IMG/VR virus record: IMGVR_UViG_3300002835_000070
Span: 38,229 to 102,228 of that record
Strand: one strand, 5' to 3'
Origin: a virus
DNA: 64,000 nucleotides
The translations under genes were made by a program, and so were the position numbers. This document shows, piece by piece, positions 5,976 to 50,995 of the stretch. Position 1 is the stretch's first letter, and every line of letters begins with the position of its first letter. The notes under the pieces were generated by a model that saw nothing but the letters and a program-made list of their open reading frames with translations, was not told where the DNA came from and did not search any database.

Positions 5976-7298
5976 AGAGTTAGTAATGAAGACTACGAAC
6001 AAAGACTTCAATATTTAAAAATGATGAAGAACAATGAACCTACTGATTTAGGTAAATACAGAATTGACAAAGAAATCAGAGAAATAAATACAATTTTAAA
6101 CCATAGAGGAAATCTAAAAAATTCTTACGCCAAAGGCGGAAGTTTAGAAGATAAACTGACTAAACTTGAAAACAAAAAATCTGAATTAGAATCAAAATTA
6201 TTTGAAGCTAAATTAAAAGAATATAAAGTTATAGAAAATATGGGTTGGGGTGCAGGTATGAGAAGAAGTAAGGTTAGTATCAGCACAAGACAAACAGATT
6301 CTTTAAAAGAAAGAATTAAACTTGTGGAAAAGGAAATAGAGCAAACCAAAATAGATATTTTGCCAAAAAAACCTAAATACATTCTTAAAGCAGACATCAA
6401 AACCGTTACACTTAAACGTAATGGCAAGGAGGTTACTTACAGTGGTGCTGATGTTCTAAATGGTGCTAACGTACTTGCGAAAGGCGGAGATTTGACTTCA
6501 AAAGCAAATTACATTCCAAAACGTGATGTAGTTTCTGTTGAGTTGAAAGATGGAACTACCGTTAAGCCTGTAAATGGGTATTGGGTTAAGAAAGGTGCTG
6601 AACCAATTGGAGGACAACCAACGCCTACTTCTTCAGGAAAATCAGAACCTAAAATTAGTACAACTGAAATTAGAAAAGATGCAAGAGGTAATTGGAGAGC
6701 GGAAAACACAGTAGATGATTTTAACGGTTACGATTGGAGAATATCTACCGTTAAAACTTATAGTGGTAATTTAGTTTCTTCTGCTCAAGGAGGTAAAACA
6801 GAGCCGACAGGAACAAAAGGTTATAGTATTTTTAAATATACTATGTATCAAGACCCAAATCATACTTTAGAAGTTTCTAAACCAAAAAGATTGACTGATA
6901 AGGTAGTTTCTGAACAACACGAAAAAGCATTAGCCAAGTTCAAAAAGTTTATGGAAACAGGAATGTTCAAAGGCGGAGGTAAAATCTCCAACTTTGATAA
7001 ACTTTCTGATAAAGTAGCAAAAGAATACGAGGGAATACCTGTTAAGAGCAAATACCAAGAGCAATATGGTAGATACTATTCTAAAGAAGAAGCACAGGAA
7101 GTTGGCGATAAAGTTGCGGGAAAAGTAAAGGCTATGCAATCTGCTAAAAAGATGTCAGGCGGTAGTACAGACGGTAAAAAATCAAATAGCGGAGCAGAAA
7201 CCCTAAAAAAAGCAAATGATTTAGCTAAAAAAATCCGTATGGATGGAGAGAGTTGGAACAATGCTAAAAAAAGAGCCTTTGCCCAATTAAAAAAATAG
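3759..7298 (+). CDS. Giant polyvalent protein: N-terminal DUF2958-like domain, LPD11-like domain, acidic tract, about 13 YADGG/YAKGG linkers
   Basis: KIFNPMGNGSWY...EVGSVSRSDL...FERDLGF resembles DUF2958. YRLLDRLRSDNDYFLGNGNRSEKHLWAGNVDAQIKEMKRLWNNLPEDAKPEWL resembles LPD11. Confidence 0.8.
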   Translation: MKLFNKTIDRQLFNQYSLGSNLSKQEVVVKIFNPMGNGSWYILNSDPNDPDYLWAIVDLGYGAEVGSVSRSDLETYRGRFGLGFERDLGFDPINAEELYNGLREGKFYADGGNIESFSDNQRMIMNQNVEVEHHHEELEDILEDKVPVPAWVVAKMETATQNLSDITHYLDGKKELMEEENEEEDEDEEEDEEEDEDQDDIKNQNVVEPINVSAGTKAELTKKFTDDALGNFKGFLKGMEGVDLREDYTFDYKDEQYEVEPIVNSDENGVSNAVFSIFDGDGEEVGEVTYSRDGGKQKFTANSEFFGWNNAKFEDGGFMNNVYADGGEISLWKAEPNNKPEKLKTFKSLRAYNTYMNKNREFFRDEHSKNGTGFYGFEADVTEKEVESSIENLYDSNNKYANGGYFDGTIPKVSTYMSNYAKGGEVAKAEILGLSKNIMGTTDIEMKISGMRKSQDFSVYPIGKDDTDQIITIQSETRIGKIDLSTGRGLMSQSHSNGAYFVHFQMDNLTKFTVSESDLEELKMYIFKTAGSNVGSSIVKSDNSGASGVYEDGGSVKRTRRTKNQIRKDEYNKEVDLYNWYIVNFLENKVESGFEYKEDAVDLLSDYDGDKNFKVVSKKTLKTLGIEIPNENWKYADGGFMNNVYAKGGKIDNSHNYRLLDRLRSDNDYFLGNGNRSEKHLWAGNVDAQIKEMKRLWNNLPEDAKPEWLSMDDILEYEQKMKKQYADGGFMNNVYADGGRVSNEDYEQRLQYLKMMKNNEPTDLGKYRIDKEIREINTILNHRGNLKNSYAKGGSLEDKLTKLENKKSELESKLFEAKLKEYKVIENMGWGAGMRRSKVSISTRQTDSLKERIKLVEKEIEQTKIDILPKKPKYILKADIKTVTLKRNGKEVTYSGADVLNGANVLAKGGDLTSKANYIPKRDVVSVELKDGTTVKPVNGYWVKKGAEPIGGQPTPTSSGKSEPKISTTEIRKDARGNWRAENTVDDFNGYDWRISTVKTYSGNLVSSAQGGKTEPTGTKGYSIFKYTMYQDPNHTLEVSKPKRLTDKVVSEQHEKALAKFKKFMETGMFKGGGKISNFDKLSDKVAKEYEGIPVKSKYQEQYGRYYSKEEAQEVGDKVAGKVKAMQSAKKMSGGSTDGKKSNSGAETLKKANDLAKKIRMDGESWNNAKKRAFAQLKK

Positions 7299-9680: not shown

Positions 9681-10301
9681 ATGGCTCTAATATACGAAAA
9701 TAAAGTTCCTGCTTCATACAGGATACCTTTTGTTAACAAGGTAAACGAAATTGCACCAAGAATAGGGGTTGACCCTAATTGGTTAATGGCAATTATGTAC
9801 TTTGAGAGCGCAGGTGGTTTTAGCCCGTCTATTACAAATTCATTAGGGTATGTAGGCTTAATTCAATTTGGAGCATCGGCAAGAAAAACTTTAGGTGTTA
9901 CAAAAGAGCAACTAAAGGCAATGACCGCAGTAGAGCAATTAGATTACGTTGAAAAATATTTTAATTTATATAAGGGTAAATACAAAACTTATATAGACAC
10001 ATATTTTGCAGTATTTTTTCCTTTAGCAATTGGAAAGCCCGATGATTGGGTAATTCAAGGCGGAGGTCTTACGGCAAAACAAATTTACGATGCGAACCCC
10101 GCTTTCCGAAATGTAAAAGACGGAAAATTGAGAGTTTGGGAAGTTAAAAAAACAATGTTAGAAAAACTGCCGAGCCAATGGCTACAAGACGGAAGTTTTA
10201 GTTTGGCAGTTAAAGCATACAAGAATTATATTGCAGTTGGTATATTATCAATATTGGCAGGATTAACATTATATTATTATGGTAGAAGCAGTACAAAATA
10301 G
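9681..10301 (+). CDS. Lysozyme-like/transglycosylase with C-terminal membrane anchor
   Basis: WLMAIMYFES...GLIQF...EQLDYV; hydrophobic C-terminus. Confidence 0.75.
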   Translation: MALIYENKVPASYRIPFVNKVNEIAPRIGVDPNWLMAIMYFESAGGFSPSITNSLGYVGLIQFGASARKTLGVTKEQLKAMTAVEQLDYVEKYFNLYKGKYKTYIDTYFAVFFPLAIGKPDDWVIQGGGLTAKQIYDANPAFRNVKDGKLRVWEVKKTMLEKLPSQWLQDGSFSLAVKAYKNYIAVGILSILAGLTLYYYGRSSTK

Positions 10302-14340: not shown

Positions 14341-14655
14341 ATGAACACGAGAGATATAGTTTTATTTGGTGTAGGGGCATTTGCAGGATACCTATTGGTA
14401 GGCTATTTGAATAAAAACAAAGTAGCTTCAGGAGCAACCGATACAATGGGTTTACCTGATACCTCTTCTCAAACAGTACCGCCTGAAACAATAGGTTCTA
14501 CTGATTCAAATGGCGGAGAAACATTAGTTGACCCAAGATTGACTTTATGCGAGGAAAATTGGGGTAAATTTTCATCTACACAAAGATTTGGTTCAGCAGA
14601 ACAAGCACAATCAGTACACGATAATTTTATTACAAGTTGTTTAGCTAAAGGATAA
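14341..14655 (+). CDS. N-anchored protein (MNTRD family)
   Basis: Paralogue of 14066; Cys pair. Confidence 0.75.
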   Translation: MNTRDIVLFGVGAFAGYLLVGYLNKNKVASGATDTMGLPDTSSQTVPPETIGSTDSNGGETLVDPRLTLCEENWGKFSSTQRFGSAEQAQSVHDNFITSCLAKG

Positions 14656-14667
14656 TAAATTGTAACT

Positions 14668-15315
14668 ATGGAATTTAACGATTTAACATACGGAAATCCA
14701 ACTGTTGAGGATTTAGTTTACATTCAGGGAAATGGATTGACAGACGACCTTTTTGAAACATTAAAGTCCAAGTTGTCATATCCAAAAAATGATTCTGAAT
14801 TAGTTAAGGACGAACTTAACGAAATTGTAGATGCTTTGGCAACAATGGCTCAACCTGAAAATCAAAACTATTTAAAAAGATACAAGTCTTACGATAGGAA
14901 TTTAATTCAGTCGCTTTCAGCAATATTTAAACAAAGAAATATTGATGTTGAACAATTGTGTAAAGACGTAGTTATGGATATGCAAAATTTGATTTATAAA
15001 TTAAAATTTTACTATCAAAGACCACGACCAAAGCAAATTGCGCAATATTACAAGTTGAAATTATTTCCATACAAAAGTTTTTCAGCACACACGCCATCGT
15101 TCCCTTGCGGACATTGCGTACAAGCAATTGTAATGCTTAACGTAATAGGAAATAAAAACCCTACTGAATATCCGTTCTGTAAAGAACTAATTGAAGATAT
15201 TGCATACAGTAGAGTATATTTAGGACATCATTTTCCAAGCGATAATGACGGAGCAAGAGAAATTGGTAAAGCGATTTTAAAACACCCTGAATTTGCGAAA
15301 AAATACGGCATATAA
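14668..15315 (+). CDS. PAP2/haloperoxidase-superfamily phosphatase
   Basis: KFYYQRPRP, PSFPCGH and SRVYLGHHFPSD are the three PAP2 motifs. Confidence 0.9.
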   Translation: MEFNDLTYGNPTVEDLVYIQGNGLTDDLFETLKSKLSYPKNDSELVKDELNEIVDALATMAQPENQNYLKRYKSYDRNLIQSLSAIFKQRNIDVEQLCKDVVMDMQNLIYKLKFYYQRPRPKQIAQYYKLKLFPYKSFSAHTPSFPCGHCVQAIVMLNVIGNKNPTEYPFCKELIEDIAYSRVYLGHHFPSDNDGAREIGKAILKHPEFAKKYGI

Positions 15316-15363: not shown

Positions 15364-15750
15364 ATGAAACACGAGGAATATGAACTACAAAAATCAGTAG
15401 CCCGTTATTTATCTTACCAATATCCAGATGTTGAATATATGTCGGATACTATTGCCTCTGTAAAACTTACCGAAAGACAGGCAGGGCGAAACAAACTTGT
15501 TCAAAAGAACAATTTTAAATGTCCTGATATTTTGATATTTGAGCCACGCAATAACTTTTGTGGCTTGTTTATAGAACTTAAAATTGAAACCCCTTTCAAG
15601 AAAGACGGTACAATTAAGGCTTCTCAAAAAGACCATTTGAAACTACAACACGAATGTTTACTTAAACTAACCTCAAAAGGTTATAAGGCGGTATTTTCTT
15701 GGAATTTTGATATGACAAAGCAAATTATTGACGAATACTTAAATCAATAG
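15364..15750 (+). CDS. VRR-NUC-like PD-(D/E)xK nuclease
   Basis: EYELQ...CPDILI...GLFIELK...Q; likely start MKHEE at 15364. Confidence 0.8.
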   Translation: MKHEEYELQKSVARYLSYQYPDVEYMSDTIASVKLTERQAGRNKLVQKNNFKCPDILIFEPRNNFCGLFIELKIETPFKKDGTIKASQKDHLKLQHECLLKLTSKGYKAVFSWNFDMTKQIIDEYLNQ

Positions 15751-15752
15751 CT

Positions 15753-16184
15753 ATGACTCAAGAAACTAACGATGTATCAAAGGTATTAAAGGAGTTGGAT
15801 AAAACCATTCAGGTAATAGGAACAGAAAAGCTAATTGAGATTCTAAAATACTCACGGCTTAATATGGCAAACATAAACGAGGAACAAATTAACAGGTCTT
15901 TAGAAATAATTAAAGTTGTTTGTGATGAATTTAATATTTCATTAGTTGAGTTCTTCGACAGAAAGCGTAAAACCAATAGAAGAACTGCAATAGGCATTTG
16001 CGCCTATCTAATTCAAAAAGAATTAAATCTTGACAATTCAAACATATCATACATTTTGAAAAAACCTGACGAAGTAATATCTTTGTACAAACAAGAAATA
16101 ATCAGATTGAACTCAAACCATCCTCAAGACATACAGGTATTGGAAAAAATAAAAATAATAAGTGAAACTATAAAATTACAATAA
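15753..16184 (+). CDS. Protein with DnaA domain-IV-like helical DNA-binding fold
   Basis: IIKVVCDEFNIS...KRK..RR...CAYL. Confidence 0.55.
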   Translation: MTQETNDVSKVLKELDKTIQVIGTEKLIEILKYSRLNMANINEEQINRSLEIIKVVCDEFNISLVEFFDRKRKTNRRTAIGICAYLIQKELNLDNSNISYILKKPDEVISLYKQEIIRLNSNHPQDIQVLEKIKIISETIKLQ

Positions 16185-16187
16185 AAA

Positions 16188-17330
16188 ATGAGCAACCAAG
16201 AAAAACAAATAGAAGAAGTTTATGCAGAAGTAGTGCAAACAATTGATGATGATTTCTCTCCGTTAGATGCCCCCGTAAAACAGAGGGCATATACACAACA
16301 CAAATTAGACGACAGTCAAGTAATGCAGGATTTGGAAGAACCAAGTTTTGAAAGACCAAGTTTTGCAGACCTTGATGGAAGTGCCGAAGAGGAATCATCA
16401 GAACCTGAAAGACCTTTTAACCCGTCTTATAATGAATTAGACGGTAAAGAAAAGACAATGGGGGCTGAAATGATGGCTGAAATGACTTTGGACATTTACG
16501 AAAAGGGTTGTTTCTATATGGGTAAAATACCCGAAATCAGTGAGCAAAAATTAGATAAGTTAATTGCAGAGGGGGAAATAGACCCGTCAATCCAACTTCA
16601 AACAGAAGCGGGTTCAATGCCTATTAAAGATTTTGCAGTAGAGTTCAACGACAGTATTAAAGATGCTTTTGCGGTAACTGACGAATTTAAAGAAAAAGTA
16701 AAACCACCATTAATCCGTGTTTTCAAAAAACGTGGAATTGGAATGACCGATGAGCAATTATTGGCTTACTACTTTATTTCAGATTTAGGAGCAAAAGGCG
16801 CACAAGCGTTTATGTTGCGTAAAACGGCTAATAGCATTTTGGATTCTTTGAGAGAAAACACTTTGGCAATTAGAGAAAATCAATTAAGAACAGAAAGACC
16901 AACTCCTCCACCTGCGCCACAACAATCGTATCAGGAAAGAACTGATTGGGATACTTCGTCAAAACCGAGAAACGTAAATACTACCGATTCCGAACCAATA
17001 GATAGAGAGGACTTTGACTATTCCGAAAACATAGCAGAAGTTATACAAAAACCTGTTAAGAAAGAAAAACTTGAAAAACCTGTAAGAAGAAAGCCTCAAA
17101 CTAATTTAGAAGAGCAATTAGCTTATTTTGAGCCTGAAGAACAAGAAGTTTTTAGTAACTTAAAAGATAAAGACGGTTTTACAGATAGATTTCAAGACGT
17201 AGCAGGTATGCCTCAATATGGCGACCCTGTAATGATGTCAGAATTAGAGAAGTTGAGTAAGAAAGACCCAACTAAACCTGTTAGAAAAGTAAGAACAACT
17301 GCTTTAAGAAAACCAAGAAATAAAAAATAA
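16188..17330 (+). CDS. Acidic protein with disordered C-half; unknown function, upstream of the ATPase
   Basis: 380-aa ORF; composition only. Confidence 0.75.
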   Translation: MSNQEKQIEEVYAEVVQTIDDDFSPLDAPVKQRAYTQHKLDDSQVMQDLEEPSFERPSFADLDGSAEEESSEPERPFNPSYNELDGKEKTMGAEMMAEMTLDIYEKGCFYMGKIPEISEQKLDKLIAEGEIDPSIQLQTEAGSMPIKDFAVEFNDSIKDAFAVTDEFKEKVKPPLIRVFKKRGIGMTDEQLLAYYFISDLGAKGAQAFMLRKTANSILDSLRENTLAIRENQLRTERPTPPPAPQQSYQERTDWDTSSKPRNVNTTDSEPIDREDFDYSENIAEVIQKPVKKEKLEKPVRRKPQTNLEEQLAYFEPEEQEVFSNLKDKDGFTDRFQDVAGMPQYGDPVMMSELEKLSKKDPTKPVRKVRTTALRKPRNKK

Positions 17331-17332
17331 TT

Positions 17333-17449
17333 ATGGCAAGTAATATAGCGAATAATAAAAACAACAATAACAATCCTATATGGGTTGTTATGTTGTTATT
17401 CGTAATTTGGCTTATATTAATTTTTTTAAGACTTAAACAAACTTTATAA
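17333..17449 (+). CDS. 38-aa membrane protein immediately before the ATPase (not in ORF track)
   Basis: MASNIANNKNNNNNPIWVVMLLFVIWLILIFLRLKQTL. Confidence 0.65.
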   Translation: MASNIANNKNNNNNPIWVVMLLFVIWLILIFLRLKQTL

Positions 17450-17450
17450 T

Positions 17451-18275
17451 ATGGAAGAAAGAGAACCGAAATTATTAGTTGCAGTTGGACGTAAAGGGTG
17501 CGGTAAAACTTTTTCAACAAGAAAAATGCTTACAAGTTATGTTCAAGGCAATATTTCAAAAGGTATTGCCCCAAGAAGAGTTTTAATATTTGATGTAAAT
17601 GATGAGTTTGAGGACATAAAAGCATTGGCTTTAAAAGATGTGGCTTTATTTTCTATGCACCCAAAAATAGAGATAAGAAGAATTAGACCATTCAACAAGG
17701 ACGGAAGACCTATGGGTATTAATGAAATGCAAGAAACATTATTTAAAATAGTTAATAATTTTAGAGGAGGAATGCTTTTGTTAGAGGATTTAAACGGTTA
17801 CGTTGGGGATTATATCCCACAGGATTTAATAGGTAAAATAGTAAGAGCAAGACACGCAGATTTGGACATAATTACGCATTTTCAATCAATAGGAAGAATA
17901 TCGCCTAAAATTTGGCAGAACGTCAACGCTATTCGTTTTCACAAAAATACAGATTCAGTTTTAAAACATTCCAAGAAATTTGATAATTTTTCAGAAATGT
18001 TTTTATTAGTGGAGGCTTATGTAAATTCCGAGTATCATTTAGGAAATGAAAGAATACAAGTTTGGGTTGATACAGAAAACGAAAAAATTAAAATACCAAA
18101 AGAAAATATAGCTAAATTTGAAAAAATTGTAGAATTGTACTTAATGGAAAACCATAAAAGAATACTTTCCCCTTTATTAAATAAAAATATTTTCTTTAAA
18201 AATAATAAACCATTAACAATGCAAGAAGTTTTAAAAATAAAAAAAGCAGAAATGTTAAAATATTATTTAGATTAA
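17451..18275 (+). CDS. A32/P9-like (FtsK-HerA superfamily) genome-packaging ATPase
   Basis: N-terminal Walker A GRKGCGKT, VLIFD, Walker B MLLLED, then RARHADLDIITHFQ (RH plus Q sensor); 274 aa with no nuclease domain. Confidence 0.75.
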   Translation: MEEREPKLLVAVGRKGCGKTFSTRKMLTSYVQGNISKGIAPRRVLIFDVNDEFEDIKALALKDVALFSMHPKIEIRRIRPFNKDGRPMGINEMQETLFKIVNNFRGGMLLLEDLNGYVGDYIPQDLIGKIVRARHADLDIITHFQSIGRISPKIWQNVNAIRFHKNTDSVLKHSKKFDNFSEMFLLVEAYVNSEYHLGNERIQVWVDTENEKIKIPKENIAKFEKIVELYLMENHKRILSPLLNKNIFFKNNKPLTMQEVLKIKKAEMLKYYLD

Positions 18276-18289
18276 AAATAAATATTTTT

Positions 18290-18883
18290 TTATAAATATT
18301 TATTTGTAATTCCGTTTTGTTTTTCAAAATCAACTCTTTTTTGGTAAGCCTCCTCTTCAGTTTTAAACATTCCGAACCGAACAGATTTTCCATTAAACTG
18401 AATTGAACTTCTCCATTTATTATCTCTTTTAAAATATGAAACGCCAATATATTTACTTGTGCAGTTTGAATTTTTAACCCTATGACAGCTATTTTCCCTA
18501 TTGTTTACCCATTCTAAATTTGAAATTTTATTATTAAGTTTATTTCCGTCAATATGGTTTACTTGCGGATTATTTTTTGGGTTATTAATAAACGAAATAG
18601 CAATCAGCCTATGTATTTTTTTTGTAATTTCAAGTGCATTTTTACAAAAACCTACTTCCCAATAACCCCTTTTACTTATATGTGGTTTTTTTATTAATAC
18701 CTTATAAATGCACTTTTTCCCACTTATAATAAGTGTTTTCTCTAAAGATTTTACTCTTCCAAGATTCGATATTTGATAATACCCCTCGTAATCAGGAACA
18801 TCTTTCCATTCTTCAACACGAGTAACACCATTATCATCTATATAGACAATATCTTCTAAACTTAAATCTTTGTAGTAATCCAT
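18290..18883 (-). mobile_element. NUMOD4-HNH-AP2 homing endonuclease
   Basis: EEWKDVPDYEGYYQISNLGRVKS (NUMOD4); HRL...VNHIDGNKLNN...LEW (HNH); SKYIGVS...W...F.TEEEA (AP2); antisense to its neighbours. Confidence 0.9.
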
Positions 18884-19134: not shown

Positions 19135-19377
19135 ATGAAAAAAAGTAGATTTAGTAAGTTATGTCTAAAAGACCTTTCACGGGGTGTGATAATGACAGTA
19201 GGTACAACTTTTGTAGGGTTGTGTAGCACAAGTGTAGTTTCGGGAATATTTCCTGCGGTTGCAGATTTTATTAATATGGGTAAGGTAGGTTTGCTTTCAG
19301 GAGCAGTTTATTTAGTTAAAAACTTCCTTACAAACTCAAAAGGCGAATTTTTAAAACAAGAAGAAGATGTCGTATAG
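19135..19377 (+). CDS. Putative holin (2 TM)
   Basis: 80 aa, two hydrophobic segments, overlaps the endolysin start. Confidence 0.6.
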   Translation: MKKSRFSKLCLKDLSRGVIMTVGTTFVGLCSTSVVSGIFPAVADFINMGKVGLLSGAVYLVKNFLTNSKGEFLKQEEDVV

Positions 19378-19894
19378 TTATTTAAGCAAAGAGGCTTCGC
19401 CTCAAATTTTAGTTCAAGCAAAATCCCTTTTAGGAACTAAAGAAATTGTAGGCGTTATTCATAATAAAACTATTATGAGTTGGGCTAAAGGTTTAGGTCT
19501 TGAAAAAATATATACCTCTGACGAAATCGCTTGGTGCGGTTTATTTATGTCAGAAGTTTGTAAAAAAGCGGGGGTAGAAACCAACTTAACCCCTAAAGAT
19601 TCATTGTGGGCTTTAAATTGGAGTAAATTTGGAACAAAGCAATCAGTAGCGATGCTTGGGGATATTCTTACTTTTAAAAGAAACGGAGGCGGACACGTTG
19701 GTATTTATGTTGGGGAAGACGATACTTGCTATCATATTCTTGGGGGAAACCAATCTAATATGGTTTGCGTTACTCGAATTGAAAAATCAAGAGTTAACAG
19801 TATTAGACGTACAAGTTGGAAGTCAAAACAACCAAGTAATGTAAGGGTAATAAAACTCGAAAGTAACGGTATAATTTCTAAAGACGAGAGTTAA
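19367..19894 (+). CDS. TIGR02594-like NlpC/P60/CHAP peptidoglycan hydrolase (endolysin)
   Basis: DEIAWCGLF, GDI..F.R.GGGHVG, LGGNQSN. Confidence 0.85.
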   Translation: MSYSYLSKEASPQILVQAKSLLGTKEIVGVIHNKTIMSWAKGLGLEKIYTSDEIAWCGLFMSEVCKKAGVETNLTPKDSLWALNWSKFGTKQSVAMLGDILTFKRNGGGHVGIYVGEDDTCYHILGGNQSNMVCVTRIEKSRVNSIRRTSWKSKQPSNVRVIKLESNGIISKDES

Positions 19895-20818: not shown

Positions 20819-20950
20819 ATGAAAAACGAAATTGTTCCTTTATTGAAAAGCGTTGCCGTTGTAGTTGTAGGTGTGTTAGTTGCTAACTATGTTCAAAAAA
20901 CATTGTTGACTAAAGCAGTTGTCGCTCCCGCTTCTTCTTCAGCAGTATAA
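20819..20950 (+). CDS. 43-aa membrane protein directly upstream of the candidate capsid gene (not in ORF track)
   Basis: MKNEIVPLLKSVAVVVVGVLVANYVQKTLLTKAVVAPASSSAV. Confidence 0.7.
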   Translation: MKNEIVPLLKSVAVVVVGVLVANYVQKTLLTKAVVAPASSSAV

Positions 20951-21004: not shown

Positions 21005-21700
21005 ATGTCAAACGTAAGAAGATATTTAAGCAATGCACGTCAAAGTGCAATGGAATCTTTCTCAAATGCTGACGGATTCATCGACCAAGACCTGTCATTC
21101 ACAGGAGATGATTTCTTTAGAGCAGACGGAGGAATGGGGCAACAAGATATTCAAACATCTCAACCCTACATTATCAACGTTACTTCTACATCAGGAGCAG
21201 CGATTGCTAACTTTGCTATATTAGGTTCATACCAATATATCAATAACACAGGATTCGTTAACGGTTCGTTAACAATCGGTCCAGTGACTGTGAGTTCAGG
21301 TATTCCTGACATCACTTACCAAGAAATGTTATACCAATTTATGAATAATCCTTATTCTGTTGGTTTAACTTACATCCAATCGGCTACTACTAACCAAGTT
21401 CTACAAACTTTGTCAGTAAACACGAGAGATGCGAATGGTAACTTGGCACAAAAAACTTTAGTGCCTACAATTGACCCATATCAGCAACAAACGAATATCG
21501 TTGCAATGAAGTATGCTTACCGTATTGATGGTTTCACAAAAATCATCATTGCTCAAATTTTAGCAACTGCTACATTGTCATTATACTTCTATCCTGCTGA
21601 TAACATCAACCTTGCAAGAGCATTGGGTGGTCAACCTGTAAGCAGACAATTCGGAACACCTCCTGTAACTAATGGACAAACCATCAAGTTAAGAGCGTAA
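21005..21700 (+). CDS. Candidate major capsid protein (beta-rich, possibly single jelly-roll) with acidic N-terminal leader
   Basis: Enriched in TTC/ATC/AAC/TAC codons relative to neighbours; own terminator; alternating strand-like pattern; no TM; paralogue at 59058. Confidence 0.6.
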   Translation: MSNVRRYLSNARQSAMESFSNADGFIDQDLSFTGDDFFRADGGMGQQDIQTSQPYIINVTSTSGAAIANFAILGSYQYINNTGFVNGSLTIGPVTVSSGIPDITYQEMLYQFMNNPYSVGLTYIQSATTNQVLQTLSVNTRDANGNLAQKTLVPTIDPYQQQTNIVAMKYAYRIDGFTKIIIAQILATATLSLYFYPADNINLARALGGQPVSRQFGTPPVTNGQTIKLRA

Positions 21701-21795: not shown

Positions 21796-22233
21796 ATGAA
21801 CGTATATGAATATGTTGCGGATTCAAATCCAAGAGTAGCAGAACAAATAATGAACTCATTTAATTATGATGTCGTTAATTCTGCTGATATGGGATTGAGC
21901 CAATTAGTTGACAAGGTCGGAGAACCTGCTTTGCAAAAAGTAATGGAAAACCACCCTGATAAAGAAATTATTTTAGAGATGTTCTCTAAAAAAGAGGATA
22001 GTAAGGATAGTACTTGCGGTTGCGATAGTTGTAGATACAGAAATCGAAATGGCAATGAAAATTTGAATTATCTTAATATGACAGGCAGTGGGAATGTTTC
22101 TCCTACTAATGTTCCAAATACAACTGCTACTGATTCTACTTCAAATACTCATTTATTGGCAAACCAAACAAATGTCATTTTAGTAGTATCTGCATTATTC
22201 ATAGCAACTGCATTAATTTTAAAAAATAAATAA
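21796..22233 (+). CDS. C-anchored protein with CGCDSC motif
   Basis: YLNMTG motif before the linker and TM. Confidence 0.8.
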   Translation: MNVYEYVADSNPRVAEQIMNSFNYDVVNSADMGLSQLVDKVGEPALQKVMENHPDKEIILEMFSKKEDSKDSTCGCDSCRYRNRNGNENLNYLNMTGSGNVSPTNVPNTTATDSTSNTHLLANQTNVILVVSALFIATALILKNK

Positions 22234-39537: not shown

Positions 39538-42500
39538 ATGGCATATCCAAATGGGTCGATACCCGTAACAAGTAGTATAGGCACTACTGCAAGTAGTGAT
39601 ACATTTCCAACGCACATAGATAATCTTGGGGCAGGTGGTCTTATGACTATGCTCACAGTTGCCAATATGAACTCAATACCAACTTTACGAAGAAAGTTTG
39701 GTATGCAAGTTTCAGTAACAAGCGATTCAACTCCCGCAAACAATAAAGTTTACATTTTAGCAAACGTTGCAATGGGTGGAACAGATAATTCTGTTTCAAA
39801 TAACTCAAACTGGATTGATTATAGTTCTTATATTGGTGCTGGTAGTCCTTTTGAGTATGGCACTAATGATGCTATTCAGCCAGTAATAGGTGGGAATGTT
39901 GCGAGTGGTTGTCAATCAACAATTGGAGGAGGTAGTTGCAATACTGCAAGTGGTTGTAAATCAACAGTAAGTGGTGGAAACGAAAATCTTTCTTGTGAAA
40001 TACTTTCTACGGTTGGAGGAGGTACAAGAAACTATGCCAAAGGTAGTTGCTCAACAATAGGAGGTGGTCAAAACAATAGAGCTATTGGACAATGGTCGTT
40101 TATTGGAGGGGGGTATAATAATTGTGCCGTAGGAGGTTACGCAACAACTGTCGGAGGTGTTGGTAATGTAGTACAATCTAGTTTTTCAACAATTATTGGT
40201 GGTAAAAGTAATACAGTTTATGGTGTTTTTTCAATAGTTGGCGGTGGTCTATATAATAAATCTTGTGGGTATTATTCAACAGTCGGAGGAGGTTTTTGTA
40301 ATAAAGCCTATGTTCATTGGTCAACAGTAAGTGGTGGAACTTGTAATATTACAAATTCAAGGTTTTCATTTATTGGAGGTGGTCAAAGAAATATAATTCA
40401 ATCGCCTACAAACGAATGTTGCTCTTTGGGAGTAACAATTGGTGGTGGTATTGGTCATAATACTGCTGGTGGTGTTTTAAATACAACTAATGGAGATTTA
40501 ACTGGTGCAATTACTTGTTGTAATGCTGGAAGATTATCTACAATTAGTGGTGGATTACTAAACTGTGGTACTGGTAATTATTCAACAATTGGTGGTGGTA
40601 AATTTAATACTGCTTCAAGTTGTTATTCAACAATTGGCGGAGGTAATAGCAATGTTTCAAGTGGTACTCATTCTGTAATTAGTGGCGGTTGTTGTAATAC
40701 CTCATCGAGTTTATTTACAACTGTTGGTGGAGGACAAGCTAATACATCATCAGCACGTTGTTCTACTGTTGCAGGGGGTGCTTCTAACATATCTTCTAAT
40801 CGTTGCTCAACTGTTGGTGGAGGAACTTTAAACTTGGCATCAGGTTGTTCTTCAACTATCGCAGGTGGTAGGTTTAATTGCGCCACAAATGATGGTTCAA
40901 CAGTTGGTGGCGGATGTTGTAATTCATCATCTTCTGTTTTTACAACAATTGGTGGTGGTTTTACTAATATTGCTTCTGCTTTTTATTCAACAATTGGCGG
41001 TGGTTATAAAAATTGTAGTTGTTGTAATTTTTCTTTAGTTGGAGGAGGTTTTTGCAATTCTGTTAAAACTGAATTTTCAACAATATCAGGTGGTAAACGT
41101 AATAATACTTGTTTAGGGGAAAATATAACAATTGGTGGCGGTTATTGTAATACTGCTTCTAATTATTATTCAACAATTGGTGGCGGTTATAAGAATCTTG
41201 CTGATGGACTAAATAGTGCTATTTTGGGAGGTTCTACAAACAAAACGTGCGGATATGCCAATGCAATGATAATCGGCTCTAATTTATGTGCAACTCAAGC
41301 GTGTACTACATTTACTAATTGCCTTTCAGCGCAAAATTTATCAGCAGGTTGTGCCGTTGTAGTTGGAGCAAATGGTGTGTTAGTAAATGCACCGACAATT
41401 CCTTACGTTGGCAGTATATTTCAAATAGGGATAGGAACAGGAAGTACAGAGCGTTGTGGTTTATCGAATAATGCTCAAGGTAATTATTCAACTATTAGCG
41501 GTGGTAAATCTAATTGTGCTTTAGGTATATATTCAATAATAGGTGGTGGTTCAATAAACACTACAAATGGTATTAATTCAATTGTAGGTGGGGGGGAAAA
41601 AAATCAAGCTATTTGCGAACATAGTGTAGTTGTAGGTGGATATTGTAATTCATCAACAAACATACACGCAATAGTAGGTGGCGGTGGTTTTAATAATGCA
41701 AGTGGAGTTTATTCAATGATTGGAGGAGGTTGTGCTAATATTGCTTCAGGTAAATATTCAACAATTGGAGGTGGTTATACTAACATTTCTTCTAACAAAA
41801 CAACAACAATAGGCGGTGGTTATCAAAATACTGCTTCAAATTCAGGTGCTACTATTGGTGGTGGTGGAGATAATCTCGCAAGTGGTTTTACTTCAACAAT
41901 TAGTGGTGGCGGTTGTAATACCGCATCTGGTTGTGTTTCATTCATTGGTAGCGGAATTCGTAATACCGCATCTAATTGTTTTTCAATAATTAGTGGTGGA
42001 TTTTGTAATACCGTATCGGCTTGTTATTCGATAATTGGGGGTGGTATATGTAATACTGCATCTGGCAATTGTTCAGCTATTTTAGGGGGGTGTTTAAATA
42101 ACACTTGTACTTTTGATGACGCTATGATAATCGGCTCTAATTTATGTGCAACTCAAGCGTGTACTACATTTATGAACTGCGTATCGGCTAATAATTTAAC
42201 AGTTGGTTGTTTTGTTAGCGTTGGCGCAAATAAAGTACTTGAAAATGCGCCTTTTGTTCCAAATAGCGGTTTATTCGCTCAAACAACAGATAGCACTCCT
42301 GTAACGGCAACTGATGTTGAAAGTTCTTTAATAGGTGTTGGTGTTGGTACATTAAGTGTACCTGCAAATGGATTTTCAGTAGGAGATAGTTTTAATGCGG
42401 TTTTAGACGGTATTATTTCAAATGTCGGAACTGCGACCCTACGTATAAGAATAAAAACACTTTCGGGTGCGCCTTTAGCAGATACGGGAGTTCTTGCTTT

Positions 42501-42774
42501 AGACGCTTCTACTTTAAAATCTTGGACACTAATATTACAATTTACAATTAGAACATTAGGAACAACAGGCGTAGCATCAATTTCGTCAGGTGGTTTGTTT
42601 TCATATATTAAAAATGCGGGAACAAGTTTTGAGGGATTCGTTTTGACACTATTAAATACAACTACTTTTGATACTACAATAAATAATACATTAGTCATTA
42701 CGGCTCAATGGAACACTAACAATGCGGGTAATTCAATGTTTTCGAGAAATTTCGTCTTGAGTAAAGTATATTAA
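39538..42774 (+). CDS. Fibre/spike protein 1: shared N-domain, Gly/Cys-rich 15-aa repeats, beta-sandwich-like C-domain
   Basis: STIGGGxxNxASGxx repeats, resembling trimeric adhesin-head beta-rolls. Confidence 0.75.
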   Translation: MAYPNGSIPVTSSIGTTASSDTFPTHIDNLGAGGLMTMLTVANMNSIPTLRRKFGMQVSVTSDSTPANNKVYILANVAMGGTDNSVSNNSNWIDYSSYIGAGSPFEYGTNDAIQPVIGGNVASGCQSTIGGGSCNTASGCKSTVSGGNENLSCEILSTVGGGTRNYAKGSCSTIGGGQNNRAIGQWSFIGGGYNNCAVGGYATTVGGVGNVVQSSFSTIIGGKSNTVYGVFSIVGGGLYNKSCGYYSTVGGGFCNKAYVHWSTVSGGTCNITNSRFSFIGGGQRNIIQSPTNECCSLGVTIGGGIGHNTAGGVLNTTNGDLTGAITCCNAGRLSTISGGLLNCGTGNYSTIGGGKFNTASSCYSTIGGGNSNVSSGTHSVISGGCCNTSSSLFTTVGGGQANTSSARCSTVAGGASNISSNRCSTVGGGTLNLASGCSSTIAGGRFNCATNDGSTVGGGCCNSSSSVFTTIGGGFTNIASAFYSTIGGGYKNCSCCNFSLVGGGFCNSVKTEFSTISGGKRNNTCLGENITIGGGYCNTASNYYSTIGGGYKNLADGLNSAILGGSTNKTCGYANAMIIGSNLCATQACTTFTNCLSAQNLSAGCAVVVGANGVLVNAPTIPYVGSIFQIGIGTGSTERCGLSNNAQGNYSTISGGKSNCALGIYSIIGGGSINTTNGINSIVGGGEKNQAICEHSVVVGGYCNSSTNIHAIVGGGGFNNASGVYSMIGGGCANIASGKYSTIGGGYTNISSNKTTTIGGGYQNTASNSGATIGGGGDNLASGFTSTISGGGCNTASGCVSFIGSGIRNTASNCFSIISGGFCNTVSACYSIIGGGICNTASGNCSAILGGCLNNTCTFDDAMIIGSNLCATQACTTFMNCVSANNLTVGCFVSVGANKVLENAPFVPNSGLFAQTTDSTPVTATDVESSLIGVGVGTLSVPANGFSVGDSFNAVLDGIISNVGTATLRIRIKTLSGAPLADTGVLALDASTLKSWTLILQFTIRTLGTTGVASISSGGLFSYIKNAGTSFEGFVLTLLNTTTFDTTINNTLVITAQWNTNNAGNSMFSRNFVLSKVY

Positions 42775-42793
42775 TATAATTAAAAAAAGCATA

Positions 42794-43750
42794 ATGGCAA
42801 TAAATAAATCACAACCACAGAATATATCATCGCCTAACGGAAATTCATTAGCAGTATTTGTAGATGGTATAACAGGAGTTCTAACACTAAAAGACGTTTA
42901 TGGCGCAACAGAACCTTTACAAAACTATGTAACAGGTGGCGGTGGCGGTGGAAGCAGTGTTTACGCAGGAGATTCGCCAACAACAGTAATAGTTGAAAAT
43001 ATACCAATAGGTACAGATATTACAGGATATACTTATGACGATTTATTTCAAAATATATATGCGCCTTATGTATATCCAACTTTCACTTCGTTTGGAATTA
43101 CACAAACTACTCCTATTGAAGTGGGAACAACAATTAGTGGTGCTAAATCATTTAGTTGGGCGTTTACAACTCCGTCTAATTTACAAGCAAATAGCGTTTC
43201 TGTAATTGACGTTACAGACGGAAATACAGTCTTGCAATCAGGTATAAGCAATACAAGCCCTCAAAATGTAAATATTGGGTCGGTTCAAAAAATAGTTTCT
43301 TCAATTAATGAATGGAAAGCAACTGCAATTGACACAAAATCAAATGTAATTACAAGTACATTTGCAACTGTTATATGGTATTGGAAATTATATTATGGCG
43401 TTAGTGCTAATCCAACATTAAACGAGGCTCAAATAGAGGCTTTGACAGGGGTTTTAAAAGCAAATCAAATAGGAGATTATACTTTTTCTACATTAAATTA
43501 TAAATACATTTGTTATCCTGATACTACGCCTTTTTCAAGTCCAACAACTGCAACAGGTTTTAAAGATACTGCTACGAATTTAGTGGTAGCAATGGCTGAT
43601 GCGACAGACGATGCTTTTTATAGCAATGTTGAAAATGGGTGGTCTTATGGTACTGTAAGTGTTACTAATGCTCAAGGAGTTACAGTAGATTATAGAGTTT
43701 ACAGAACTAAATATGAATTAGGTGCAGAAATAACAATTAGAGTTTCCTAA
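42794..43750 (+). CDS. Beta-rich structural protein in the fibre cluster
   Basis: T/S-rich, Gly hinge, located between fibre genes. Confidence 0.6.
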   Translation: MAINKSQPQNISSPNGNSLAVFVDGITGVLTLKDVYGATEPLQNYVTGGGGGGSSVYAGDSPTTVIVENIPIGTDITGYTYDDLFQNIYAPYVYPTFTSFGITQTTPIEVGTTISGAKSFSWAFTTPSNLQANSVSVIDVTDGNTVLQSGISNTSPQNVNIGSVQKIVSSINEWKATAIDTKSNVITSTFATVIWYWKLYYGVSANPTLNEAQIEALTGVLKANQIGDYTFSTLNYKYICYPDTTPFSSPTTATGFKDTATNLVVAMADATDDAFYSNVENGWSYGTVSVTNAQGVTVDYRVYRTKYELGAEITIRVS

Positions 43751-43767
43751 TTTAAAAATAATTTAGT

Positions 43768-46326
43768 ATGGCATATCCAAATGGGTCGATACCCGTAACA
43801 AGTAGTATAGGCACTACTGCAAGTAGTGATACATTTCCAACGCACATAGATAATCTTGGGGCAGGTGGTCTTATGACTATGCTTACTGTTGCCAATATGA
43901 ACTCAATACCAACTGCTCGAAGAAAGTTTGGTATGCAGGTTTCAGTTACAAGCGATTCAACTCCTGCAAACAATAAAGTTTATATTTTAGCAAACGTTGC
44001 AATGGGTGGAACAGATAATTCTGTTTCAAATAATGCCAATTGGATTGAATATTCGTCTTTTAATGGCGCAAGTCCTTTTGAACATAATGCTAATGCAACG
44101 GGTATTCAGCCGATAATAGGTGGTAATAATGCGAGTGGTGTTAATTCAACAATTGGGGGTGGTCAACAAAATACCGCTTGTGGTTGCACTTCAACAATTG
44201 GAGGTGGTGCAAATAATGTTTCAGGCAAATTAAGTACATATTTTCAAACTTGCAACACTAATTACGCACGGTTTTGTACTAATTCAGGATATGTTAACGG
44301 AAATGTTAATTTTATAGCACCAAACTTTAGTTATTTTTGTTTTATCGGAAATCAAACTACTTATTTTGGAAGCCCCGATATTATAAGTGGTTTATATTTA
44401 AAAAGCGATACTCCTCTTAACTCTTTTAGTTGCTATCAACCTAACACGGGGTTTTCTTTAATAGGCGCATATTACAATCCATCTACGCAGAATACCTGTG
44501 TAGGATTCTCTCCTAACTTATATAGTGAATTTTCAATAAATCAATATCCAGGTTCTTTTATAGGAGGAGGAAATTCAAATTTATCTTGCGGAAAAAATTC
44601 AGTTGTAGTTGGTGGTTTAGAGAATAATGCTTTATGTGCATACTCGACAATTGGGGGTGGTCAATGTAATAATTCAAGTGGTTATTCCTCAACAGTAAGT
44701 GGTGGCGGTAGTAATACCGCTTCGGGTTATATTTCAACAATTGGCGGAGGTAATAGCAATGTTTCAAGTGGTACTCATTCTGTAATTAGTGGGGGTTGTT
44801 GTAATACCTCATCGAGTTTATTTACAACTGTTGGTGGAGGACAAGCTAATACATCATCAGGACGTTGTTCTACTGTTGCAGGAGGTGCTTCTAACATATC
44901 TTCTAATCGTTGCTCAACTGTTGGTGGTGGAACTTTAAACTTGGCATCAGGTTGTTTTACAACTATCGCAGGTGGTAGGCTTAATTGCGCTACAAGCTAT
45001 GGTTCAACAATTGGAGGTGGATGTTGTAATTCATCATCTTGTTATTTTACAACAATTGGCGGTGGTTATTGTAATATTGCTTCGGGTTATGATTCATTTA
45101 TTGGTGGTGGTAGAACAAATACCGCTTCAGCTTGTAAATCAACAATTGGCGGAGGTTGTTGTAATACCGTTTCGTGTTATATTTCAACAATTGGAGGTGG
45201 TTATCGCAATACTGTTTCGGGTAGTATTTCAACAATTGGAGGTGGCGGTAATAATAACGCTTCGGGTCAAGGTTCGACAATTAGTGGTGGTCAATGTAAT
45301 ACCGCTTCGGGTTATTGTTCAACAGTTGGAGGCGGTTCTTGTAATTCATCATCGAGTCTTGCTACAACAATTGGGGGTGGACGTTTTAATATTACTTCTG
45401 CTTGTAATTCAACAGTTGGAGGCGGTTCTTGTAATATTGCTTCGTGTGCTAATTCAACAATTGGTGGTGGTCTTAAAAATACTGCTTCGGGTGCTACTTC
45501 AACAGTTGGCGGTGGTTGTTATAATACCGCTTCGGGTGGTGCTACAACAATTGGGGGTGGACGTTGTAATATTGCTTCTGCTTGTTATTCAACAATTGGG
45601 GGTGGTTGTGTTAATACCGCTTCGTGTGCTAATTCAACAATTGGTGGTGGTAAACTTAATAAAACTTGCAATAGTTATGCAACAATTGGGGGTGGTATTG
45701 AAAATACCGCTTTGGGTGCTACTTCAACGATTGGGGGTGGCTTTCAAAATCTTACTTCTAATAGTATTTCAACAATTGGTGGTGGCTCTCGAAATACCGC
45801 TTCGGGTTTTATGTCAACAATTGGGGGCGGTTGTTGCAATATTACTTCTAATTGTAATTCAACAGTTGGTGGTGGTCTTAAAAATACCGCTTCGGGTTAT
45901 TCCTCGATAATTGGTGGGGGTTGTTATAATACCGCTTTGGGTTGTAGTTCAACAATTGGGGGTGGTTTTCAAAATACAGCTTCGTGCAATAGTTCAACAA
46001 TTGGGGGTGGTTGTCAAAATACAGCTTCGTATTGCCATTCAACAATTGGGGGTGGTTGTCGTAATACCGCTTCGGGTTTTGGAGCTACTATTTCAGGTGG
46101 TTTTAGTAACTGCGCTAATGGTATTAGTTCTTTTATTGCGGGAGGAACTTGTAATAGCACATCTTTTTTTGATTTCGCAATGATTGTAGGTTCTTGTATA
46201 ACCGCAAATAGAGTTTGTACTACATTTGTAAATAATTTATCTATAATGAACATTCCAACATATAGCGCAGGTTTACCAAGTGGTGCTTTGTGGAGTAGTG
46301 GCGGAACAATATGTATTGTACCGTAA
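43768..46326 (+). CDS. Fibre/spike protein 2
   Basis: Same N-domain and repeats; non-repeat insert near the start. Confidence 0.75.
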   Translation: MAYPNGSIPVTSSIGTTASSDTFPTHIDNLGAGGLMTMLTVANMNSIPTARRKFGMQVSVTSDSTPANNKVYILANVAMGGTDNSVSNNANWIEYSSFNGASPFEHNANATGIQPIIGGNNASGVNSTIGGGQQNTACGCTSTIGGGANNVSGKLSTYFQTCNTNYARFCTNSGYVNGNVNFIAPNFSYFCFIGNQTTYFGSPDIISGLYLKSDTPLNSFSCYQPNTGFSLIGAYYNPSTQNTCVGFSPNLYSEFSINQYPGSFIGGGNSNLSCGKNSVVVGGLENNALCAYSTIGGGQCNNSSGYSSTVSGGGSNTASGYISTIGGGNSNVSSGTHSVISGGCCNTSSSLFTTVGGGQANTSSGRCSTVAGGASNISSNRCSTVGGGTLNLASGCFTTIAGGRLNCATSYGSTIGGGCCNSSSCYFTTIGGGYCNIASGYDSFIGGGRTNTASACKSTIGGGCCNTVSCYISTIGGGYRNTVSGSISTIGGGGNNNASGQGSTISGGQCNTASGYCSTVGGGSCNSSSSLATTIGGGRFNITSACNSTVGGGSCNIASCANSTIGGGLKNTASGATSTVGGGCYNTASGGATTIGGGRCNIASACYSTIGGGCVNTASCANSTIGGGKLNKTCNSYATIGGGIENTALGATSTIGGGFQNLTSNSISTIGGGSRNTASGFMSTIGGGCCNITSNCNSTVGGGLKNTASGYSSIIGGGCYNTALGCSSTIGGGFQNTASCNSSTIGGGCQNTASYCHSTIGGGCRNTASGFGATISGGFSNCANGISSFIAGGTCNSTSFFDFAMIVGSCITANRVCTTFVNNLSIMNIPTYSAGLPSGALWSSGGTICIVP

Positions 46327-46344
46327 TAAAAAAAATAATATAGT

Positions 46345-49300
46345 ATGGCATATCCAAATGGGTCAATACCCGTAACAAGTAACATAGGCACTACGGCAAG
46401 TAGTGACACATTTCCAACGCACATAGATAATCTTGGGGCAGGTGGTCTTATGACTATGCTTACGGTTGCCAATATGAACTCGATACCAACTGCTCGAAGA
46501 AAGTTTGGTATGCAGGTTTCGGTAACAAGCGACACAACTCCCGCAAACAATAAAGTTTACATTTTAGCAAACGTTGCAATGGGTGGAACAGATAATTCTG
46601 TTTCAAATAATGCGAATTGGATTGAATACTCTTCTTTCAATGGTGCAAGTCCTTTTGAATATAATGCTAATGCAACAGGCATTCAGCCAATATTAGGCAG
46701 TAATAATGCGAGTGGTTGTTTAGCTACTATTGGTGGTGGTTGTTATAATATTGCAAGTGGAACACATTCTTTTATTGGTTCAGGCTTTTGTAACAAGGCA
46801 ACTTTAGATAAATCTATTGTTGTTGGGGGATATAAAAATTGTGCATCAGGTTGTTATTCTTTTATTGGGGGTGGTTATTATAATTCTTCAAGTGGTAAAT
46901 ACGCTACAATTGGTGGGGGTTCATATAATGAAACTGCTTATAGTTATACAACTGTAAGTGGTGGAAAATATAACAGTTCAATTAGTAAGGGTGCTACCGT
47001 TAGTGGCGGTATATTAAATAATTCAAACAATCAATATGCTTTTGTAGGTGGAGGTAAAAAAAATCTTTCTTCTGGTCAATTTGCTACTATTGGCGGTGGT
47101 TGTTGTAATAAAGCGTGTGTTAATGGTTCAACAGTTGGTGGTGGAATAAAAAACACATCTTGCAATAATTTTTCAACAGTTAGTGGTGGTTGTTGTAATA
47201 CTGCGAATGGTTGTTACTCTTTTATAGGTGGTGGTGCTTGTAATCTTGCATCAAGTACTGAAAAAGGATTTCAGGGATTTTCAACAATTGGTGGTGGTAG
47301 GAGTAATACCGCTTGTGGGAATTATTCTTTTATTGGCGGTGGTAAATTAAATTGTGCTTTAGGCGAATATTCAATAATAGTTGGTGGTTTTAATAACTCA
47401 ACTACTTGCCCTCTTTCAACAATCGGTGGTGGTCGTTGCAATATTACGTCTGCTATAAATTCAACTATTAGTGGTGGTTGTAGTAATAGTACTTCGGGTT
47501 TTTATTCAACAATTGGCGGTGGTTGTACTAACATTGCTTCTGCTTCAAAGGCAACAGTTAGTGGCGGTGGTAATAATACTGCATCTGCTTGTTATTCATT
47601 TGTAGGTGGCGGTGCTTACAATACTGCTATTTCTACGAATTCAACTATTGGTGGCGGTGGTAGTAATAATGCGTGTGGGGAATTTTCATCAATTGGCGGT
47701 GGTGTTGAAAACGCTACATTTGCACCAAATGCTACAATTGGTGGTGGTAGGAATAATCAAGCCTGTGGTAATGCTTCAACTATTTCAGGTGGTTGGTGTA
47801 ATAGTACTTGTTATAGTTTTTCAACAGTAGGTGGTGGTAAACAGAATAGTGCTTCTTATGATTATGCAACAGTAGGAGGCGGTTATTGTAATACTGCTTC
47901 AAATTATTATTCAACAATTGGCGGAGGAATTAGTAATACTTCAAGTGATTATAATTCAACAGTTGGTGGTGGTATTTGTAATACCGCTTCGGGTTCTGAT
48001 TCATTTATTGGTGGTGGTAGAACAAATACCGCTTCGGGTTGTTCCTCGATAATTGGTGGTGGTTTACAAAATACTGCTTCTAATAAATACACAACAGTTA
48101 GTGGTGGTCAATGTAATACTGTTTCTTCAATTAATGGCATAATTGGGGGAGGTTGTTATAATAAAATAAACGCATCTCAAAACTATAATAATAGTTATCC
48201 TTTTATTGGAGATGTAATTAATGGCGGTAGTCGTAATGAAATTAAACAAAATACTTATTGTGCTTTTTCTTCTACTGGTGGAAATGTAATTGGAGGGGGT
48301 TATAATAATATAGTATGTGCTTATAGAGAGTCAAATACTATTGGTGGTGGTAAAATTAATACAACTCGTGGGGATTTTTCAACAATAAGCGGAGGAAATA
48401 GCAATAAGGCTTATTGTAGTGGCTCAACAATAGGTGGCGGTTCTTTTAATAAAGCGTATAATTATCACGCTACTGTTTCTGGAGGTGTTGCAAATACTGC
48501 TTGTGGTTGTTATTCAACTATTGGTGGTGGTAGATGTAATATAATTACTTCTGGTCGTTATACATTTATTGGAGGAGGTCAAAAAAATTCGCTAACCGCT
48601 ATTTATTCAACAATTGTAGGGGGTTATTATAATACTGCTTCTGGTTATTCTTCTTTTGTAGGTGGCGGTAGTAAAAATACATCAAGTAATAATTATACAA
48701 CAGTAGGTGGCGGTAGATATAACGTTTCAAGTAGTTATTATGCTACTATTGGAGGTGGTTGTTGCAATACTGCTTCGGGCAATAGTTCTTTTATAGGTGG
48801 GGGTATATTTAATGTTAGTTGTGGTGCTGTTTCTTTTGTAGGTGGCGGACAACGTAATGTAAATTATGGTCTTTTTTCAACAATTTCTGGGGGTTATTAT
48901 AACTGTATTCAAGGAGGATGTAATTCTACAATTGGTGGCGGTAGTAAAAATTGCATAAAGGGTAAGAGTGGAGTAATTGGCGGAGGTTATAATAATTATA
49001 TTACTGATAGAAGTGATTATTCCTCTATTATTGGTGGCAGAAATAATAATACCAACGATTATAGTGATGTTCATATAATAGGTTGTAATATTACTGCAAA
49101 TCAAAATAACACTACATTTACAAATTGCATTTCTGCTTGTAACTTAACCGCAGGTTGTTTTGTATCAGTAGGTGCAAACGGTGTATTAATAGATAATGCA
49201 GGTATTCCTTATGCGGGTTGCTTAATAATTCAAGGTTTAGGTACGGGTAGTACAATGCGTTGTGGTTTGTCAAATATTGCAACAGGCAATTATGCAACTC

Positions 49301-50700: not shown

Positions 50701-50722
50701 TAAAAATAAAAAAAATAAAAAT

Positions 50723-50983: not shown

Positions 50984-50995
50984 AAAAATATAGTT

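Follow-up and report, generated by a model that had tools for sequence, protein, structure and literature searches.

Which protein packages the DNA of a large virus in which profile searches detect no terminase? The question is raised by a 64,000-nucleotide stretch of viral DNA (hereafter the window), comprising bases 38229-102228 of the 102,228-bp IMG/VR virus record IMGVR_UViG_3300002835_000070. An open reading frame (ORF) at positions 17451-18275 of the window encodes a 274-amino-acid (aa) P-loop ATPase. Guided by a structure model whose fold most resembles the DNA-packaging enzyme of tailless viruses that contain a membrane, we read the product as a compact member of the FtsK-HerA superfamily, of the viral A32/B204 type, which would make it a new variant of a known enzyme. 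We put the probability that it serves as an A32/B204-like genome-packaging motor at roughly 60%. The novelty lies in the genome context more than in the enzyme.

The sequence motifs of the ATPase agree with those listed in a preliminary description of the locus. Walker A (GRKGCGKT) sits near the N-terminus at residues 13–20, the variant Walker B carries the expected LLLED core (MLLLED, residues 108–113), and the RARH and HFQ elements fall at residues 131–135 and 143–145, respectively. In a close alignment of 33 sequences reaching down to 45% identity, G13, K15, G16, G18, K19, E112, D113, R134, H135, D137, D139, Q145, S146 and R149 are invariant. Across a broad alignment of 56 relatives (29–46% identity), the invariant positions include K19, D113 and R77, and conservation reaches at least 90% at E112, H135 and Q145. 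Viral FtsK-HerA packaging ATPases are defined by Walker A, Walker B, and a conserved Arg and Gln (PMC11703096); this third motif pairs a conserved arginine, the finger, with a polar sensor that is usually Gln (PMC11703096, citing Iyer et al. 2004). The ATPase has both residues, R134 and Q145, for which we infer the corresponding catalytic roles; the segment that holds them aligns with NRH...TQ of B204. Viral packaging ATPases also consist of the motor domain alone and are far shorter than their cellular homologues (PMC11703096). The architecture here is likewise motor-only, with Walker A beginning at residue 13 and neither a transmembrane (TM) segment nor a nuclease domain.

AlphaFold2, run on the alignment, gave a confident model (predicted local distance difference test score, pLDDT, 89; predicted template modelling score 0.84). 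It consists of an ASCE core (residues 4–216) followed by three C-terminal helices (217–272), which bears out the earlier statement that the protein has no nuclease domain. In a Foldseek search of the PDB, the B204 "genome packaging NTPase" of Sulfolobus turreted icosahedral virus (STIV) and STIV2 takes the top 15 ranks (E 1e-9 to 1e-6), followed by HerA (7e-6) and RadA/Rad51 (~1e-5). The best structural match in BFVD is a Corticoviridae NTPase (6e-8), and the other top matches there include A32-like packaging ATPases of mimivirus, medusavirus and tupanvirus, the Haloarcula virus PH1 ATPase and the mavirus FtsK-HerA ATPase. Sequence searches of the PDB returned nothing with the single ATPase sequence and only P-loop noise, such as ClpB and HerA, with the 33-sequence profile. 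The broad profile matched B204 from Walker B to NRH...Q (E 1e-3 and 2e-3) and HerA over the P-loop (E 1.4e-4), with all other matches at 0.055 or above.

We placed the protein by structural ranking rather than by a sequence phylogeny against A32, P9, HerA and Zot, because identity to these references is just 10–18% and a phylogeny was judged unreliable. By this ranking, viral packaging ATPases lie nearer than cellular HerA, VirB4 or helicases, if by a modest Z margin. The structural ranking, the B204 profile match, the motif set and the short architecture all speak against a cellular grouping. The label "A32/P9-type" given to the protein in the preliminary description therefore survives in part: by structure it is nearest to the B204/A32 type, but by sequence it falls outside the curated A32 and P9 families.

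Three more specific identities were considered for the protein and set aside. A terminase large subunit (TerL) would carry an RNase H-like nuclease domain C-terminal to its ATPase domain, which the model lacks, and TerL families gave no match beyond a single weak PHROGs hit confined to the P-loop core (phrog_2666, "terminase large subunit", E 5e-4). A HerA helicase is disfavored by a Walker A at residue 13, which leaves no room for the N-terminal HAS-barrel domain. Zot and the inovirus pI protein require a TM segment and a periplasmic C-terminal domain after the NTPase domain, and the ATPase has no TM segment.

The gene inventory of the virus leaves few other candidates for a motor. CheckV rates the record as 100% complete; nearly all of its genes share one orientation, and GC content is ~31–34%. 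A canonical Walker A occurs in just four proteins of the genome, and a P-loop with a downstream Walker B in three: a zeta-toxin-like kinase, a MoxR-like AAA+ protein and the ATPase at 17451-18275. This leaves the ATPase as the sole plausible DNA motor encoded. Six-frame searches of the whole genome found no match at E ≤ 1 to TerL_ATPase, Terminase_6N or the HK97 Phage_capsid family, and control genomes were positive. Genome-wide Pfam and PHROGs scans of ORFs of at least 60 aa likewise placed no terminase, portal or capsid family among the top 25 families listed per scan; those listed include polysaccharide-modifying enzymes, RecT, SSB, a replication initiator, HNH endonucleases, lysins and polyvalent-protein domains. 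We looked for terminal direct or inverted repeats and found none; the ends therefore give no indication of how the DNA is packaged. An ORF with a Cas12f/TnpB-like TNB domain (genome positions 106-402) is cut by the start of the record; given this interrupted ORF and the lack of terminal repeats, the ends may be assembly breaks despite the CheckV estimate.

The ATPase lies in a conserved gene block. Across the 69 IMG/VR loci we compared, the order is PAP2, VRR-NUC, helix-turn-helix (HTH), acidic protein, ATPase, a variable insert, a tiny TM protein, a 231-aa protein and a tail-anchored protein. The ATPase is also a hotspot for homing-endonuclease insertion. In the window, a gene for an HNH/NUMOD4/AP2 homing endonuclease (18290-18883, minus strand) directly follows it, an arrangement present in 4/69 loci, and GIY-YIG-like ORFs of ~250 aa lie upstream of it in loci L045, L047, L056 and L060. 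Homing endonucleases typically flank essential, conserved phage genes, and we count their presence on both sides of the ATPase in favor of packaging.

Several observations weigh against a packaging motor of this type. Pox_A32 (PF04665), the profile proposed earlier as a check, matches neither the ATPase nor anything else in the six-frame search of the whole genome at E ≤ 1. The companion check against PRD1 P9 also failed: hhalign of the 33-sequence alignment aligned only 20 columns around Walker A, at a probability of 9%, although this comparison used one P9 sequence and its sensitivity was limited. On the ATPase itself, Pfam gave AAA_22 and DUF87/HerA matches, all below threshold. Weak Pfam matches among the 56 relatives went to DUF87/HerA (32), Zot (16), TrwB (4) and Pox_A32 (1; 8.3e-5).

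That DUF87/HerA is the commonest of these weak matches, together with the structural closeness of HerA and DndH-C to the model and a VRR-NUC nuclease encoded two genes upstream, would fit a HerA-like helicase or translocase acting with the VRR-NUC and HTH proteins in end processing, recombination, or defence and counter-defence. We consider this very unlikely. The position of Walker A leaves no space for a barrel domain, and the families listed by the genome-wide scans include no NurA, Sir2, DUF4297 or similar effector partner. Furthermore, the nuclease is found in 38/69 loci, whereas the constant neighbors of the ATPase are the acidic protein (65/69) and the 231-aa protein (52).

The Zot and TrwB matches point in another direction, to a Zot/pI-like or VirB4/coupling-protein-type ATPase that moves proteins, such as polyvalent effectors, or drives membrane or virion assembly. 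The tiny TM genes adjoining the ATPase and the several giant polyvalent proteins encoded in the genome would suit such a role. However, the ATPase has no TM segment or extra domains, and no other type IV secretion or inovirus-like genes were seen among the families listed by the genome-wide scans, so we regard this explanation as improbable.

The remaining points against packaging concern the virus as a whole. A genome of ~100 kb would have no precedent among bacterial viruses with this motor type; the known prokaryotic double jelly-roll viruses have genomes of 7–18 kb (Yutin et al. 2018, PMC5894146). PHROG matches to "short tail fiber protein" (2e-27) and "tail fiber adhesin" (1e-26) occur in the genome, their source ORFs not traced, and the automatic taxonomy of related clusters, including relatives of the acidic protein, reads Uroviricota. 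A very divergent HK97/portal/terminase set is possible, since the absence of these folds was judged by hidden Markov models, with two proteins modelled structurally, and the evidence does not establish a capsid function for the 231-aa protein. The virus would then be a tailed phage whose terminase, portal and HK97 proteins escape the profiles, and the ATPase would do another job, for example in DNA processing, replication, recombination or host takeover. We consider this unlikely. TerL, usually the easiest phage gene to detect, stays undetected at E ≤ 1, and a kinase and a MoxR-like AAA+ protein are the only other proteins with a P-loop and Walker B. The ATPase also resides within the most conserved, structural-looking block, away from the replication genes. 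Nor do the traced tail labels indicate a tail, because their alignments cover enzyme domains only: the lysin-type proteins at 9681-10298 and 19367-19894 match PHROG "baseplate hub" and "tail lysozyme" labels, yet the former aligns only to profile positions 383–521 of 536, probably a transglycosylase/peptidase domain, and the latter, an NlpC/P60 protein, only to one end of its "baseplate hub"-type profile. Separately, the genome contains a Pfam crAss001_48 match (1e-17) whose source ORF was not traced.

The features of the block around the ATPase are collected in Table 1.

Table 1. Features of the ATPase locus, in window coordinates.
Feature	Position	Strand	Length (aa)	Remarks
VRR-NUC (PD-(D/E)xK) nuclease	15364..15750	+	128	Two genes upstream of the ATPase
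HTH protein (DnaA C-terminal-like)	15753..16184	+	143	Precedes the acidic protein; Pfam Bac_DnaA_C E 5e-6, missing the family cut-off
Acidic protein	16188..17330	+	380	Acidic N-terminus, conserved helical core, P/Q-rich linker, basic C-terminal tail
Micro protein, single TM	17333..17449	+	38	Clade-specific
Candidate genome-packaging motor, FtsK-HerA-type (B204/A32-like) ATPase	17451..18275	+	274	
Tiny protein, single TM	20819..20950	+	43	Family-wide; directly upstream of the 231-aa gene; PRD1 P20 position
Capsid-protein candidate	21005..21700	+	231	~45-aa conserved leader and ~150-aa beta-sandwich core
Tail-anchored protein	21796..22233	+	145	Downstream of the 231-aa gene; C-terminal TM anchor, TM segment at residue 120

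Directly upstream of the ATPase lies the 38-aa micro ORF, which the preliminary description had likened to the PRD1 membrane proteins P20 and P22. The junction is as described there: the TAA stop codon ends at 17449, a single T follows, and the ATPase ATG begins at 17451. A 38-aa ORF recurs at the same junction in diverged loci; its product has an N-rich head, a single TM helix whose 17-residue hydropathy reaches 3.3, and a basic tail. Its median ratio of non-synonymous to synonymous polymorphism (pN/pS) is 0.41, and variable columns distribute over the codon positions as 28/15/30, with the second position varying least. Its conserved length and these codon patterns show the micro ORF to be a real gene, and its distribution shows it to be an optional, lineage-specific accessory. 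It occupies the acidic-protein/ATPase junction in 21/69 loci, and 14 loci carry other inserts there, the GIY-YIG-like genes among them. As a subclade-specific insertion at an insert-tolerant junction, it is ill suited to be a universal counterpart of P20/P22, and we doubt that the micro protein has a role in packaging.

The family-wide tiny TM gene is instead the one at 20819-20950. With few exceptions, the ~55 loci listed have a TM ORF of 35–45 aa directly before the 231-aa gene, and in ~25 compact loci it stands essentially alone between the ATPase and the 231-aa gene. The 231-aa protein, our coat-protein candidate, is the most conserved protein, and its beta-sandwich is weakly jelly-roll-like. 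Its leader (21005-21150) forms a helix followed by F-x-N-A-D-G-F ... F-F-x-A-x-G, has a pLDDT below 50, and may serve as a propeptide or as a tether to membrane or scaffold. Four paralogues of the beta-sandwich core are encoded elsewhere, one in the window (59058-59522) and three at genome positions 6650-7174, 14648-15112 and 17225-18418. One paralogue, of 397 aa, comprises two tandem beta-sandwich copies (38% and 34% identity), recovered by phmmer as two domains. In the ESM Atlas this tandem protein gave chance-level scores (≤ 0.80) to actinoporin/aegerolysin-like beta-sandwiches, from which we draw no conclusion. Completing the downstream block, homologues of the 145-aa tail-anchored protein hold the same position in 44 loci.

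Elsewhere in the window, positions 39538-52606 contain very large ORFs (1078, 318, 852, 1451 and 536 aa) with a GC fraction of 0.35–0.39, against ~0.31, and a reversed AT skew. Their products carry repeated STIxGGKSN and SFIGGGRTN motifs, belong to no Pfam or PHROG family, and may be fibres or spikes.

On the upstream side, the acidic protein is the closest partner of the ATPase by position. In 30 loci the end of its gene touches or runs past the start of the ATPase gene, by 1 or 4 nt in 24 of them. Its alignment shows a conserved N-terminal motif and an "MPxFGDxxIL..LE.L" block, followed by a Lys/Arg tail. Neither Pfam nor PHROGs annotates it, and the ESM Atlas returned unnamed viral clusters only. 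We consider it a candidate adaptor or DNA-binding partner of the ATPase.

The HTH protein is syntenic in 47 loci; PDB sequence searches with it were uninformative, and a part in DNA recognition is speculation. The nuclease assignment draws on 12/18 homologues that match Pfam VRR_NUC (best E 4e-4) and on a family profile that matched one PDB sequence, the VRR-NUC 4qbl (E 4e-5). Speculatively, the VRR-NUC, the HTH protein and the nuclease-less ATPase could form a split recognition, cutting and motor set, a "split terminase". At the left edge of the block, a PAP2-family lipid phosphatase (14668-15315) is conserved in 62/69 loci at 60% median identity, and TM-like segments occur in 36/135 ORFs. 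Given the PAP2 conservation and the many TM-like ORFs, lipid handling seems central to this virus.

The ATPase family is large. Among 90% clusters, 535 proteins match at E ≤ 1e-3, their contigs reaching 145 kb, and at 50% identity there are 713 clusters. A tblastn search of 50,697 GenBank phage records with the ATPase found no match, and literature searches did not find a description of the virus group. In genome collections, relatives (L074-L084) appear solely on contigs of metagenome-assembled genomes (MAGs) that are binned to unrelated phyla, including Bacteroidota, Chlamydiota, Gammaproteobacteria, Bathyarchaeia and Pacearchaeota; the closest are labelled Bacteroidetes and Sediminibacterium. 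These look like viral contigs swept into bins, and with so many phyla represented the host inference is weak.

How might such a motor work? By analogy with B204, PRD1 P9 and FtsK, the ATPase would form a ring that sits at one vertex of an already assembled capsid. K19 would bind ATP and E112/D113 would activate water, with R134 serving as an arginine finger in trans and Q145 sensing the gamma-phosphate. The ring would then pump the ~100-kb double-stranded DNA genome into the particle. The acidic protein with its basic tail, translationally coupled upstream, would work with the ring, and the tiny membrane proteins could tether it. The downstream block would supply a tiny membrane protein, the beta-sandwich coat candidate and the tail-anchored membrane protein. 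A packaging-vertex location for any of these proteins, as first suggested in the preliminary description, is something we infer.

More tentatively, the ATPase may be both the motor and the best marker of an undescribed, widespread lineage of bacterial viruses with genomes of 60–145 kb, probably infecting Bacteroidota. Such viruses would lack a terminase/portal/HK97 module and build a membrane-containing particle from small beta-sandwich proteins, with one tandem fusion still traceable, and their motor would be coupled to an acidic adaptor and tiny membrane proteins. This broader proposal is possible, and we hold it less firmly than the motor assignment. To our knowledge, large genomes served by an A32-, P9- or B204-type motor are found only in eukaryotic giant viruses. 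If the proposal holds, these genomes are five- to ten-fold larger than in any prokaryotic virus known to use a motor of this class. If the ATPase does package a ~100-kb bacterial virus genome, it offers a marker gene for an overlooked, environmentally common lineage, the genome-size range of the motor type in bacteria would be extended, and the origin of large terminase-free viruses would become testable in a bacterial system. The conserved coupling to the acidic protein, along with a separate VRR-NUC and HTH, suggests a way for a motor that lacks a nuclease to gain its substrate.

Among characterized systems, STIV/STIV2 B204 (PDB 4KFR-4KFU, 4R2H) is the closest by structure, at 14–18% identity to the ATPase. 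The two differ in Walker B, which in the profile alignment reads ED here and DE in B204, and in the ~58-residue C-terminal helical extension (residues 217–272), which has no counterpart in B204. They differ in setting as well: STIV is an archaeal virus with a genome under 20 kb, whereas the virus described here would have a bacterial host and has a genome of ~100 kb. With the A32-like ATPases of nucleocytoplasmic large DNA viruses, the protein has in common the FtsK-HerA motif set and the motor-only architecture, and poxvirus A32 also bears a C-terminal helical/coiled-coil extension (PMC11703096). Cellular HerA, VirB4 and DndH-C, in contrast, span 370–940 residues and contain extra N-terminal or inserted domains.

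PRD1 packages its DNA through the ATPase P9 together with the small membrane proteins P20 and P22. P9 resembles our ATPase in size (227 versus 274 aa) and in its N-terminal P-loop. The annotated PRD1 gene order runs P6, P10, P9 (ATPase), gpi, P20 (42 aa), P3 (coat) and P22 (47 aa). In both viruses, soluble proteins are thus followed by the ATPase, one or more tiny TM proteins, the coat or beta-sandwich gene and a small TM protein, a synteny that we count in favor of packaging. There are also differences. The tiny TM proteins here are likened to P20 and P22 by position, the coat candidate is a single ~150-residue beta-sandwich rather than a proven double jelly roll, and the genome is ~7x larger. 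The positional parallel with PRD1 is striking, and we read it as analogy, not homology.
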